Shown: positions 38,493-40,235 of the stretch, in pieces
Layout: each line of letters begins with the position of its first letter
Numbering within the stretch: the stretch's first letter is position 1
Assembly: GCA_028821235.1 (NCBI GenBank)
Contig: JAPPGV010000161.1
Location: 291-64,290 of the forward strand
DNA from: a bacterium
GTDB taxonomy: Bacteria; Actinomycetota; Acidimicrobiia; Spongiisociales; Spongiisociaceae
DNA length: 64,000 nucleotides
Direction: 5' to 3'
Notes under the pieces: model-generated
What the model saw: only the letters and a program-made list of their open reading frames with translations
Databases searched by the model: none
Told to the model about the DNA's origin: nothing
Made by a program: the position numbers and the translations under genes

Positions 38493-40235
38493 TCAGACGG
38501 GGCCGTAATCGAGGACCGACGACCGTCCTGCGATGGCCACGACCCGCACGAGCAACGACTTGCCGTCCGCGTCCATCAAGTGCAGATCTTCATCTCCGGG
38601 GACGAAAGGGACCGGCTGCTGCTGTCCGCCGTTGATGGCGATGTTGGAGGCATAGAGGTACGTCCGGTAGCTGGCGTCGAGAATCGGATTGAGCCGGCCG
38701 GCTAGACCCGGTACGTGACCGGTCGACTCTGCGAACACGACGGAACCGCCATCCGCATTGGGGGTCAACTCGACTGCGAGCGCTCGCTCCATCGGCAACC
38801 AGCCTCGTTCGACATGTGCCGCGTAGCCCTTTCGAGCCACGAACACCGTCATTGGCAGGTGAACGGAGTGCAGGTCAAGGCGCGCCTCGCCCTCAGCGTC
38901 AGTGCGGTCCCGCTTCCAGGTGTTGTTCGGGAACAGTGCCAGCACATCCGCGCCGGCGAGCGGTGATCCGCCGCTACGCACCGTGACCACCACAGTGGCC
39001 GGGTCCGCGTGAACCTCGGCGGCGGGGAGAGTAATGCACAACTCCGAATTATCGATGAGCCGGAACTGTGCGTCCTTCCCGGATAACTCGCTGGTCTCGC
39101 GGCTGATGATAGAAACACCGTCGCCACGGCGCTCCATGAAGTGTTGCCGGCCTCCGGTACCCTCGACCCCACCGACGCTCATGCGGCCCAGGATTGAGGC
39201 GAGTACCTGGTTACGAGTCACCTGTCGCTCCATCATGCTCTCGACGGTCAGATTGTTGGGAAGTCCGCCCGGAGATCTCAACTCAAGGCGATCAGAAAAG
39301 ACCGACAACCGGATTCTGCTGCCTCGGATCGAGTAGTCACGGTGCACGACCGCATTCACCAGAGCCTCAAAGACCGCTCGCGAGCTGTATTGGGGCAGGT
39401 TCACCCGAGCGGGGTCCTTGCGCGCACCGACACGCATGTTTCGCATGACGAACGCGAGTGCCTGGGTGATCTGCTTATTGATCGGACCGACGATGTCCTG
39501 TGCGTCGATCTGCGCAGATGAGCGGTCAACGCCCTTGTAGCGAACGGCCGTGACCTCCGCGCCCGGAACGAACTCTCGGGGCTGCCGGGTGCACGCCAGA
39601 ATGCCCGCCACGGTGGCCAGAACCGCGCCGTGGCTGTCGGTACGCAATAGTCCGAGCTTCTCGAGCCCCAACCGGGGGTCGCGCAAGCCCTCAGCGCTGA
39701 GCAAGGGCTTCCACAGGTCCTTGTCGAGGGTTGAGAAGCCCGTGCCAGCGACCATCTGCTCGTCGAAACCGGTGAACCGAGCCTGGCCGCGCCTTTGCGC
39801 CAGGCGCATCCGCTCGTCGGGCGACATGGGCTGCTTGGCACTGCCCACGCGCACGAAGCTGCCCCCAGGGCTGTCGTATTGCGCGTCCCCTTCCGGTATG
39901 GAGACAAGGAGGAACGGCCGTTCATCCAGCTCCCTTCGGAACGTCTCGATCCTGACCGGTGGCTTGATGGAGTCCGTGCAGATCTCCCTGACCAGGCCCT
40001 CGAGTTTGTCCAGTTGGTAGCGGGACATTCCTGGCACATCGCCCGCGTCGGTGACGCCGAGCAGAAGGACGCCGCCCCTGGCATTCGCGAAAGCGGCGAT
40101 CTCGTCGGCCCAACTGTCGCGATGGTGCCGCGCGGGGTCGCTGGCGCGAAAATCAACATCTTTGAATTCCCAAGCGCTGTCCTCGCCGAGGCGAAGTTGG
40201 CGCCGAATCTCGTAGTCGGTGTACGCCATCGTCAT
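38493..40235 (-). CDS. AlbA_2 (Schlafen-like divergent AAA) / HATPase_c_4 domain protein with atypical beta-rich C-terminus
   Basis: N-terminus [11 protein letters not shown]...[13 protein letters not shown] (AlbA_2-like). Middle [39 protein letters not shown] (HATPase_c_4-like). The C-terminal roughly 170 aa are unassigned, and the first part looks like a carboxypeptidase-regulatory-like domain. Confidence 0.7.
   Translation of the reverse strand: [580 protein letters not shown]

Follow-up and report, generated by a model that had tools for sequence, protein, structure and literature searches.

Mammalian Schlafens (SLFN11/12/13/14) are tRNA/rRNA-cleaving effectors triggered by stress or virus. 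Some 60,000 prokaryotic proteins pair a Schlafen domain with an ATPase, most of them without a known trigger, and the one studied case senses via Argonaute. In RzAgo, as this SLFN-pAgo of Runella zeae is called, the SLFN domain cuts tRNA, ATP binding at the GHKL domain drives tetramerisation, with E314 and N318 coordinating the ATP gamma-phosphate and Mg, and the C-terminal part is the sensor (bioRxiv 10.64898/2026.05.29.728809). The first-pass annotation of the locus analysed here had called the biochemistry of the family not established, which is no longer wholly so now that SLFN plus GHKL is described as an ATP-switched tRNase effector in SLFN-pAgo. Stand-alone genes of this 'Schlatpase' kind occur in type I restriction-modification (R-M) operons of Poribacteria, and Schlatpase modules have been exchanged with type I R-M systems, including a fusion to HsdS (bioRxiv 10.64898/2026.05.29.728809). 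A comparable arrangement is that of PrrC/RloC, latent RNases encoded inside hsd operons that embody the concept of a second-line suicide defence and combine an ABC-type ATPase with an ACNase domain. In the window, i.e., the whole stretch of 64,000 nucleotides that was analysed, a compact 580-aa version of the Schlafen-ATPase pair is encoded by the following elements:

38493..40235, minus strand: coding sequence, with its stop codon, of the Schlatpase-type protein of 580 aa (ORF list, full-length homologs, Pfam)
39822..40184, minus strand: SLFN_AlbA_2 (Schlafen-type nuclease) domain, aa 18-138 (Pfam E 2.8e-18, 67 bits, cutoff 25)
39021..39758, minus strand: GHKL-type ATPase region, aa ~160-405 (Foldseek, Pfam, invariant residues)
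39027-39323, minus strand: HATPase_c_4 Pfam core, aa 305-403 (Pfam E 2.3e-18, 66 bits, cutoff 26)
38769..38999, minus strand: subdomain 1 of the tail, predicted transthyretin-like / CarboxypepD_reg beta-sandwich, aa ~413-489 (AF2, Foldseek, PF13620 in relatives)
38496..38762, minus strand: subdomain 2 of the tail, conserved all-beta domain, aa ~492-580 (high-confidence strands, invariant columns)

The ORF has exactly the position and length proposed in the first-pass annotation. An alternative start at 40229 would yield a product of 578 aa, the length of the database copy, which begins at the third codon. Spurious long ORFs are frequent in the window's 67% GC DNA. This one is genuine, because more than 120 database clusters align with the 580-aa protein from end to end at 63-98% identity. 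Neither a signal peptide nor a TM helix was found in the protein, and no PADLOC model covers it as a whole.

The protein is of a known kind, namely a Schlafen + ATPase pair; what is new is its all-beta tail, which has not been described before. Pfam placed both the AlbA_2/Schlafen and the HATPase_c_4 domain above their gathering cutoffs, in line with the original assignment, and the succession of PF04326 and PF13749 on one polypeptide is that of the Schlatpase supradomain and of RzAgo. Among 25 homologs, the nuclease motif E18-x4-E23-F-K25 (E18-DSAW-E23), the Schlafen box A47-AFAN-51 and D63 are either invariant or conserved to at least 90%; RzAgo likewise has an E(x)4(D/E)xK motif, a SAFAN-type box, an acidic triad and a GHKL Glu/Asn pair. 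In the 580-aa protein the latter would correspond to E290 and N294, which are invariant (25 homologs) and fit RzAgo E314/N318 by their E-x3-N spacing. With the mammalian Schlafens the protein has the nuclease fold and catalytic motif in common (SLFN nuclease C-lobe), and the profile alignment with SLFN13/SLFN12 spans the E..EFK and SAFAN..GG..GV.D motifs; however, it comprises the C-lobe only, carries a GHKL ATPase instead of an SF1 helicase and shows very low sequence similarity (E 5e-4 to 0.3). Foldseek matched the Schlafen part to SLFN5/11/12/13/14 and 2KYY, and the GHKL region to the ATP-binding domains of histidine kinases and PDK4. The best structural match was DIP2311 (3LMM; E 1e-15, ~440 columns), which covers the first ~440 residues; together with the 'RecG-related' 2KYY it represents the COG2865-type proteins, which have the same two Pfam domains in the same order but end in a winged helix that is absent here. 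In PADLOC, a pAgo model aligned with aa 41-394 through its SLFN-GHKL part, and matches in PHROGs were confined to the Schlatpase part, with the family labelled 'DNA helicase'. The full-length AF2 model (pTM 0.51) leaves the domain arrangement uncertain.

In place of the winged helix (wHTH), the first-pass annotation had proposed a beta-rich module that starts with a CarboxypepD_reg/Ig-like segment and continues with about 100 unassignable residues. Two independent AF2 models predicted the tail (aa ~413-580) to be all beta, with a pLDDT of 95.4 for the model of aa 405-580, and contained no helix after aa 385; Pfam and NCBIfam searches did not detect an HTH family either, and no hidden wHTH came to light in the tail. 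The first segment emerged as a predicted sandwich: subdomain 1 gave Foldseek matches to 9HFJ (TMt 0.73) and 5AQ0 (TMt 0.79), and PF13620 was called in 25 of 150 tail relatives, the 580-aa protein itself staying below the Pfam reporting threshold. The remaining ~90-100 residues indeed match nothing described, and Pfam holds no family for aa 404-580. For subdomain 2, a Foldseek search of the tail model against PDB and BFVD returned matches to subdomain 1 alone, a profile search of PDB sequences a single chance match (E 0.97), Pfam up to E 10 only noise, PHROGs nothing, and a set of 5.8 billion proteins, queried by profile, only unnamed proteins or fragments. Its conserved motif reads G-x-(I/V)-PGL-x-GRLNPI-x-D-x3-RTYLYA-x-NIAI. 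To say that the module replaces the wHTH is an oversimplification: the present protein has no wHTH, but some relatives in the tail family (P0135, P0146) keep a Fic-like_C wHTH behind a beta module that follows HATPase_c_4, and thus both forms exist.

The tail is combined with a variety of other domains. Among 150 representatives, its partners were TIR_2 (12), TIR (5), Pkinase and DUF4062 (3 each), SEFIR, Peptidase_C14 and Trypsin_2 (2 each) and AAA_14/DUF4143, with N6_Mtase and HSDR_N among those seen once. According to PADLOC, the N-terminus of a TIR partner (P0130) matches the model of SpbK and that of a kinase partner (P0123) the model of the Ser/Thr kinase PD-T4-6, which points to 'effector plus module' as a shared design, although the effector of the 580-aa protein is a different one. 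We know of no described SpbK or PD-T4-6 protein that carries the beta module. The tail was also found in secreted or membrane-anchored proteins, such as P0124 (signal peptide and trypsin) and P0123 (kinase, TM helix and two modules), so that it may serve binding or oligomerisation in general and not be dedicated to sensing phages. Dockerin-carrying proteins have the module as well. Genes of 150-300 aa seemingly encoding the module only were considered as stand-alone forms, but the two that were examined (L125, L126) turned out to be pieces of disrupted full-length genes.

Full-length homologs with 60-98% identity occur in at least eight phyla, mostly in sponge symbionts, and those with 60-90% identity span at least eight phyla; of the 575+ loci, the best 80 are almost all from sponge-symbiont MAGs, as judged by names and run metadata. 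The full-length homologs share no synteny with the window, and GC3 of the gene is 0.77 versus 0.85-0.91 in the adjoining genes. By these sequence criteria (identity across phyla, lack of shared synteny, lower GC3), the gene is horizontally transferred, a trait shared with the known Schlatpase supradomain proteins. Type I R-M subunits lie within 6 kb in 25 of the best 80 loci, and two or more subunits in 21. ORF calls of 13 loci showed the end of the hsdM ORF (6004) overlapping the start of the gene (6001), with hsdS coming next. PDC-S19, MORC-like GHKL and HEPN-type genes are also encountered near homologs. At the remaining 55 loci, the immediate neighbours are mostly non-defence genes, and within the closest clade (L001-L026, 64-90% identity) there is no R-M subunit nearby. 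The window copy has housekeeping and metabolic neighbours (dnaE, dehydroquinase, oxidoreductase, sulfatase, ABC transporter), and no Hsd or other R-M subunit was found within the 64 kb. Across the homologous loci, the hsd genes were the only conserved partners; an ORF of ~190 aa containing HExxH was seen in seven loci and matched neither Pfam nor PADLOC. As no relative was found on viral contigs in IMG/VR, we argue against a phage origin. Homologs are frequently decayed, one being frameshifted (L125), one split by IS66 (L126) and many present as fragments, which fits the expectation for costly defence genes. Findings that would have spoken against the first-pass annotation, i.e., a failed profile match, an ordinary wHTH or homologs residing in stable housekeeping neighbourhoods with a known function, were not obtained.

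Architecture, conserved catalytic residues, tail fold, horizontal spread, R-M linkage of homologs and the sharing of the tail with effectors were established computationally. On this basis, we hold with moderate confidence that the protein is a cytoplasmic, single-protein defence nuclease of the abortive-infection type and of the Schlatpase kind. The defence function that had been put forward initially gains real support from the 25 of the best 80 homolog loci in type I R-M operons, from the preserved SLFN/GHKL residues and from the tail's occurrence in TIR, SEFIR, caspase and kinase proteins. Mechanistically, the N-terminal Schlafen/AlbA_2 domain would work as an RNase dependent on metal, with tRNA as its most likely substrate, and the central GHKL ATPase would assemble the active oligomer upon ATP binding. 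The C-terminal two-domain beta module would hold the place that a wHTH or an Argonaute core has in relatives, and may be the sensor or regulatory part that silences the nuclease until a trigger binds. An activity as RNase, oligomerisation upon ATP binding, a tail that serves as sensor, a trigger and protection from phage are predicted properties; tRNase activity and ATP-driven tetramerisation in particular are expected by analogy with RzAgo. The analogy has its bounds: the 580-aa protein is about half as long as RzAgo (~1,100 aa), it lacks the Argonaute core (PAZ/MID/PIWI), with no Ago Pfam match in the tail, as well as any guide RNA logic, and its sensor position is occupied by a 170-aa all-beta module without a described homolog.

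A small, well-folding, undescribed module at the sensor position of a whole family invites a more far-reaching proposal. The two-domain beta module, and above all subdomain 2, might be a new portable sensor. It would define a family of one-protein immune receptors that runs through the whole microbiome of sponge symbionts, with a single recognition module exchanged between effectors of the Schlafen-ATPase, TIR, SEFIR, caspase, trypsin and kinase types. It would act inside the cell and, as receptor kinases and secreted forms, also outside, and presumably recognise the same phage- or host-derived ligand in every form. In this full form we regard the proposal as tentative and somewhat unlikely. 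If the tail is a sensor, its ligand would reveal the trigger of a whole set of one-protein defences and give a handle on the conflict between phages and bacteria in sponge microbiomes, which are so far unculturable. If the gene has no part in defence, what is left is a COG2865-like protein of the ordinary, uncharacterised sort whose tail is unusual.

Several other functions have to be weighed against that of a self-contained defence nuclease. The position of the gene between hsdM and hsdS or adjoining hsdR in 25 of the best 80 loci, its start often overlapping the hsdM stop, is what would be expected of a type I R-M accessory like PrrC/RloC, that is, of a latent nuclease restrained by the R-M complex and freed when a phage disables restriction, with the tail docking on Hsd and the window copy using an R-M system elsewhere in the genome. 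The preprint's account of Schlatpase modules traded with type I R-M systems and the single N6_Mtase and HSDR_N partners of the tail are in line with this. Yet the closest clade and the window are devoid of nearby R-M subunits, the tail also occurs on TIR, caspase, kinase and secreted proteins without an R-M link, and there is neither a sequence nor a fold relationship to PrrC/RloC, so that we rate such an accessory role as unlikely. Database names of the COG2865 type ('putative DNA binding domain-containing protein', 'transcriptional regulator') would instead make the protein a DNA-binding regulator or a nucleoid-associated protein, as would its likeness to DIP2311, whose family usually ends in a wHTH, and the listing of AlbA_2 among nucleoid-associated families in one pangenome study. 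However, the all-beta tail offers no HTH, a plain DNA binder would have no use for the ATPase residues or for the nuclease's acidic triad, both of which are kept here, and the gene is patchy in distribution, horizontally transferred and often decayed; a regulator of this sort is very improbable in our view.

Frequent decay, together with a possibly insert-free strain in the same sponge and with the movement of a single gene, accompanied by its leader only, into unrelated contexts (see below), might also betray a toxin gene of a selfish or addictive nature, maintained by its own spread and by what losing it costs, without benefit to the host. Such a gene would have to manage without mobility machinery of its own and without a conserved antitoxin-like partner next to it. 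Moreover, the intact 580-aa form and all catalytic residues are kept at 60-98% identity over many phyla, which indicates selection for function, and we assign a selfish nature a low probability. The prevalence of sponge-symbiont MAGs among the best 80 loci, finally, is compatible with a symbiosis factor whose beta module binds a ligand of the sponge host or of microbial surfaces, e.g., a glycan, and whose family is geared to life within the sponge and not to antiviral defence, given that subdomain 1 resembles carbohydrate-associated transthyretin-like domains and that the module is present in secreted and dockerin-carrying proteins. But enrichment in sponges fits defence equally, as sponge microbiomes are dense and phage-rich; the 580-aa protein has neither a signal peptide nor a TM helix, its module is joined to a nuclease and an ATPase that work inside the cell, and the remaining partners in the cytoplasm (TIR, SEFIR, caspase) are effectors typical of immunity. 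A role in symbiosis thus seems quite unlikely, and we retain the abortive-infection nuclease as our working model.

How the gene came to lie in its present context can be traced at the insertion site, which comprises the following elements:

37422..38489, plus strand: Gfo/Idh/MocA oxidoreductase gene, source of the duplicated 3' end (ORF; Pfam GFO_IDH_MocA on the L081 orthologue)
38347..38492, plus strand: direct repeat copy 1, made up of the final 143 nt of the intact oxidoreductase gene and 3 further nt, abutting the stop codon of the 580-aa ORF
40236..40297, minus strand: 62-nt leader, which moves together with the gene (alignment of 9 loci)
40298..40443, plus strand: direct repeat copy 2, an orphan oxidoreductase 3'-end fragment forming the tail of an artefactual ORF (40219..40440)

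The oxidoreductase gene is convergent with the 580-aa ORF, the only ORF of the 1805-bp insert, and the two 146-nt repeat copies differ by two mismatches, both synonymous. A second, independent assembly (L081) has the same junctions, which rules out an assembly artefact. The first-pass annotation was right in seeing a true repeat enclosing a single cargo gene, but this repeat does not betray a mobile element: neither transposase, integrase nor terminal inverted repeats were found in the insert or at its ends, and in a sister lineage (L084) the gene adjoins the same oxidoreductase gene with no repeat at all. A transposon or IS was dismissed for lack of terminal inverted repeats and a transposase, and an integrative element on the grounds that an integrase is missing, that the repeat consists of coding sequence from the host and that the conserved segment ends differently from locus to locus. 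The 146-bp repeat is the duplicate of a gene's 3' end, and gene conversion has kept its copies uniform. Upstream of the gene, conservation is limited to ~70-140 nt; all Acidimicrobiia-clade copies have the leader conserved over ~70 nt, with a GAGGG Shine-Dalgarno-like element before the start, and a consensus promoter scan of the leader gave no hit. The gene arrived with only this ~62-nt leader, most likely through illegitimate recombination anchored by homology, in which 146 bp of the neighbouring gene were duplicated, and not by transposition. The locus thereby illustrates how a single defence gene, if it is one, spreads over at least eight phyla with nothing but its leader, either into R-M operons or behind housekeeping genes, leaving duplicated gene ends. 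Scanning the metagenomes with the oxidoreductase did not turn up any contig from the same lineage with a clean empty site. Logan contigs of run X4 showed a depth of ~35 for the flanks and of ~5 for the insert, with two unitigs abutting by 30 nt at the repeat start, which is suggestive, though only suggestive, of an empty site in an insert-free strain of the same sponge.

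The 580-aa open reading frame lies exactly where the first-pass annotation had placed it:

38493-40235, minus strand: 580-aa Schlatpase-type ORF (ORF list)

Long spurious ORFs are frequent in the window at its GC content of 67% (e.g., a 543-aa antisense ORF within dnaE), but this one is genuine, as judged from more than 120 clusters of ~580 aa that match it end to end at 63–98% identity in a database search, and from two Pfam domains that clear their cutoffs by a wide margin, SLFN_AlbA_2 at aa 18-138 (E 2.8e-18) and, at aa 305-403, HATPase_c_4 (E 2.3e-18). The AlbA_2/Schlafen-like plus HATPase_c_4 core proposed from sequence alone is thus borne out; for aa 404-580, no family was reported by Pfam or NCBIfam. 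The database copy of the protein, P0001, begins at the third codon (578 aa). PADLOC matched only the SLFN-GHKL part of its pAgo model (aa 41-394) and the same region of Argonaute-associated proteins, and the sequence revealed neither a signal peptide nor a TM helix. With the full-length AF2 model (mean pLDDT 79.5, pTM 0.51), the top PDB match was the COG2865-type protein DIP2311 (3LMM; ~440 columns, E 1e-15), in an alignment that ends before the tail, accompanied by matches to the nuclease domains of SLFN13, 5, 11, 12, and 14, to the 'RecG-related' N-domain 2KYY, and to GHKL ATP-binding domains of histidine kinases and PDK4.

Both core domains look catalytically competent as far as conserved residues can tell. 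The family profile aligns with rat SLFN13 and human SLFN12 over a stretch that includes GEDSAWEFK. In this alignment, the E(x)4(D/E)xK nuclease motif corresponds to E18-x4-E23-x-K25, the Schlafen (SAFAN) box to AAFAN, and the third acidic residue to D63. Across 25 homologs, K25 and D63 never vary, and conservation of E18 and E23 is 90% or higher. Within the GHKL part, the residues E290 and N294, likewise invariant in the homolog alignment, share the E-x3-N spacing of RzAgo E314/N318, residues that bind the ATP gamma-phosphate and Mg (bioRxiv 10.64898/2026.05.29.728809). That preprint (May 2026) gave the pair of SLFN_AlbA_2 and PF13749 the name 'Schlatpase' and counted 60,692 such prokaryotic proteins, most of them with no extra domain or a short HTH. 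In the SLFN-pAgo of Runella zeae, where such a pair is fused to an Argonaute core, the SLFN domain cuts tRNA, the Argonaute core is the sensor, and phage protection proceeds through abortive infection; ATP bound to SLFN-pAgo's GHKL domain leads to tetramerisation (bioRxiv 10.64898/2026.05.29.728809). Type I R-M operons of Poribacteria carry a stand-alone Schlatpase gene or a Schlatpase-HsdS fusion (same preprint). The Schlatpase core, a defence role in one fused family, and stand-alone Poribacteria R-M copies are therefore already known. In contrast, the preprint describes no beta module like that of the 580-aa protein, and no paper on the beta tail was found in the literature beyond it. New, as far as our searches reach, are the conserved tail with an undescribed domain, the fusions that join this tail to effectors of the TIR, SEFIR, caspase, trypsin, and kinase types, and the spread of the 580-aa form over sponge-symbiont phyla.

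Modelled alone with 40 homologs, the tail (aa 405-580) is predicted with pLDDT 95.4 and pTM 0.89 to be all beta and helix-free, with two subdomains:

aa ~413-489: subdomain 1, predicted transthyretin-like/CarboxypepD_reg sandwich (tail model and Foldseek)
aa ~492-580: subdomain 2, near-invariant motif G-x-(I/V)-PGL-x-GRLNPI-x-D-x3-RTYLYA-x-NIAI (homolog alignments)

Foldseek matches of subdomain 1 include the NTE domain of SusC (9HFJ, TMt 0.73) and the TTL domain of carboxypeptidase D (5AQ0, TMt 0.79), in agreement with PF13620 called in relatives. Subdomain 2 had no match of its own among PDB or viral folds in the structure search with the tail model, none among PDB sequences, Pfam (E up to 10), or PHROGs, and, as a profile against 5.8 billion proteins, none with an informative name or Pfam domain. 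The models, Foldseek, and failed family searches together confirm the earlier description of an Ig-like or carboxypeptidase-regulatory-like start followed by ~100 unassignable residues.

A search with aa 405-580 against 1.84 billion representatives gave 547 hits. In most of the 150 best, which are ~100 to 760 aa long, the module sits at or near the C-terminus.

Pfam domain counts in the 150 best of 547 tail matches
HATPase_c_4: 28
TIR_2: 12
SLFN_AlbA_2: 10
DUF4143: 7
Fic-like_C: 6
TIR: 5
AAA_14: 3
Pkinase: 3
DUF4062: 3
SEFIR: 2
Peptidase_C14: 2
Trypsin_2: 2
N6_Mtase: 1
HSDR_N: 1

Its occurrence with TIR, SEFIR, caspase, trypsin, and kinase partners shows that the tail is a portable module, joined to effector domains that are usual in conflict systems. 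Protein P0130 combines the module with a TIR part matching the SpbK model of PADLOC. In P0123, a TM helix and then two modules in tandem come after a Ser/Thr kinase (matching PD-T4-6 and mad6), which would be a receptor-type arrangement, and P0124 has three modules after a signal peptide and a trypsin-like protease. The latter two proteins thus carry the module in tandem outside the cytoplasm, and such extracytoplasmic occurrence is easier to reconcile with a general ligand-binding module than with a sensor acting strictly inside the cell. The tail of the 580-aa protein makes a good candidate for a new sensor module, and one that lends itself to testing. Many database matches of 90-300 aa to the tail may be gene fragments. 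The two checked are L125 4048-5603, a family copy split by a frameshift beside hsdR, and L126 1376-5576, a copy disrupted, between hsdS and hsdR, by an IS66-family transposase.

Our leading reading, held with about even confidence, is that of a stand-alone Schlatpase-type abortive-infection nuclease, in which ATP bound to the GHKL domain would bring about assembly of the active SLFN RNase and the beta tail would act as sensor or regulator. The analysis shows how the domains are arranged, that the catalytic residues are conserved, how the tail folds, that the gene was transferred horizontally, that homologs are linked to R-M, and that immune effectors share the tail; each biochemical step and the phenotype are what we infer. 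The names of database entries would instead make the protein a DNA-binding regulator, which we consider very improbable. The earlier proposal that the beta module replaces the usual C-terminal winged helix holds for the 580-aa protein with its helix-free tail, but not for some relatives, where module and wHTH coexist (P0135: DUF4062, HATPase_c_4, module, Fic-like_C wHTH). At least 575 homolog loci turned up when one genome per species was scanned, and the best 80 of these (59–90% identity) were analysed. Among these 80, a type I R-M subunit is encoded within 6 kb in 25, and two or more in 21. As a rule, the gene is immediately preceded by hsdM on the same strand, with hsdS downstream, and according to ORF calls at 13 loci the hsdM ORF end at 6004 overlaps the Schlatpase start codon at 6001; Pfam confirmed the neighbours (N6_Mtase/HsdM_N, Methylase_S). 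A backup nuclease dependent on R-M, comparable to PrrC/RloC, would be in line with this linkage, yet we rate it as unlikely: the gene stands alone at the remaining 55 loci, those of the closest clade and the window among them, with mostly metabolic and few defence or mobile genes adjoining. Since no partner gene conserved across all loci was found, the 580-aa protein probably works alone.

The best 80 loci belong to Chloroflexota (35), Acidimicrobiia (19), Poribacteria (12), Acidobacteriota (4), Nitrospirota (2), Latescibacterota, Thermodesulfobacteriota, and Bacteroidota (1 each), and unclassified bacteria (5; four 'bacterium' only, one Candidatus Versatilivorator); Alphaproteobacteria and Gammaproteobacteria joined them in further database searches, and no relative was found in IMG/VR viral contigs. 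Judging from names (Poribacteria, Poriferisodalis), the relatives would largely be sponge symbionts, and the sequencing runs containing the window sequence are sponge metagenomes. Nearly all members of the family appear to come from sponge-associated bacteria, which span at least 8 phyla (60–90% identity; L001-L080, X1-X20); this suggests a gene pool common to sponge microbiomes. A binding function in sponge symbiosis would suit this distribution; given the nuclease-type core, we hold it to be improbable. The absence of the window's flanking genes from all 80 loci, the several identity classes of Acidimicrobiia copies, and the deviating GC3 (0.77 versus 0.85–0.91 in the neighbours) point to horizontal transfer of the gene. 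The family also decays frequently, many short fragments being recorded. A selfish toxin, spreading and decaying in this way, is to our mind just as improbable as the symbiosis function, and the abortive-infection nuclease is retained as the preferred reading.

The gene is flanked by two copies of a 146-nt repeat:

38347-38492: repeat copy 1, end of the intact Gfo/Idh/MocA oxidoreductase gene
40298-40443: repeat copy 2, orphan oxidoreductase fragment

The copies differ by 2 mismatches, both synonymous, and nothing but the 580-aa ORF and its leader of 62 nt lies in the 1,805 bp between them. In all copies of the Acidimicrobiia clade, this leader is conserved over ~70 nt. Of the repeat-bounded insertion initially proposed, the repeat and the sole cargo are real, but the repeat is no evidence of a mobile element; we rejected that reading, as the repeat is host coding sequence and the insert has neither terminal inverted repeats nor a recombinase gene. 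L081, an assembly of a related strain, has identical junctions (repeat copies at 3883-4025 and 1932-2074), a 98% identical protein, and ~96% identical flanks. Across the four copies, 8 variable sites are common to both copies within one genome versus 0 common to orthologous copies, which by sequence comparison indicates homogenisation by gene conversion after the strain split. In the more distant sister lineage L084/L085 (protein 92.6% identical, flanks 88–91%), the gene again converges on this oxidoreductase gene, but it is displaced by another ~145 nt downstream, no repeat is present, and its other flank is DNA located 10 kb away in the window. The leader end resembles oxidoreductase sequence ~7 nt into the repeat (CCATCCG). 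Long flanking duplications (34-525 nt) occur at L006, L032, L033, L041, L048, L059, and L074; at L033, L041, and L048 one copy lies within the hsdM 3' end, and the second copy of L041 was confirmed as an hsdM fragment. We infer that the gene spread by recombination anchored by neighbour-gene homology, with an illegitimate join at microhomology and duplication of the anchor. The 146-bp repeat could also mediate loss of the gene. In Logan contigs of sequencing run X4, the flanks have a depth of ~35 and the insert ~5, and two unitigs meet where the repeat begins, a hint of a coexisting strain without the insert.

Several minor observations concern the neighbourhoods. The R-M islands also hold PDC-S19/DUF3644, double-GHKL MORC-like, and NTase_sub_bind proteins. 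At seven loci (L033 5412-5981; also L027, L030, L041, L048, L051, L057), a ~190-aa ORF with an HExxH-like motif (AHECFH) and no Pfam or PADLOC match separates hsdM from the Schlatpase gene; it may represent a partner or a second cargo gene. Poribacteria-type islands carry, downstream of hsdS, a conserved 332-aa ORF without Pfam or PADLOC match and a 736-aa MORC-like protein with two GHKL domains (HATPase_c_3 and HATPase_c; L065 9342-12710, equivalents in L035, L049, L068, L073, L078); L033 has a PDC-S19/DUF3644 gene in that place instead. In the window, the 73-aa ORF at 40219-40440 (plus strand) is an artefact, its last 46 residues being the orphan oxidoreductase C-terminus. Between the oxidoreductase and dehydroquinase genes, L081 has an extra ~1.7 kb (5036-6682), lacking at the window equivalent (~37301-37393), with a 548-aa ORF without Pfam or PADLOC match; because this second presence/absence difference lies directly beside the first, the DNA around the oxidoreductase gene may be especially prone to gain genes. 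Between the same two genes, L084 has a tandem repeat of the 7-nt unit GTTGGTA (3748-3817, ~9 copies); it lies in a segment (3736-3998) that found no window counterpart in blastn. The dehydroquinase gene itself (36138-37280, minus strand) encodes a 380-aa fusion of type II dehydroquinase and alpha/beta-hydrolase (BD-FAE/Abhydrolase_3-like; Pfam on the L081 orthologue), which appears unusual.
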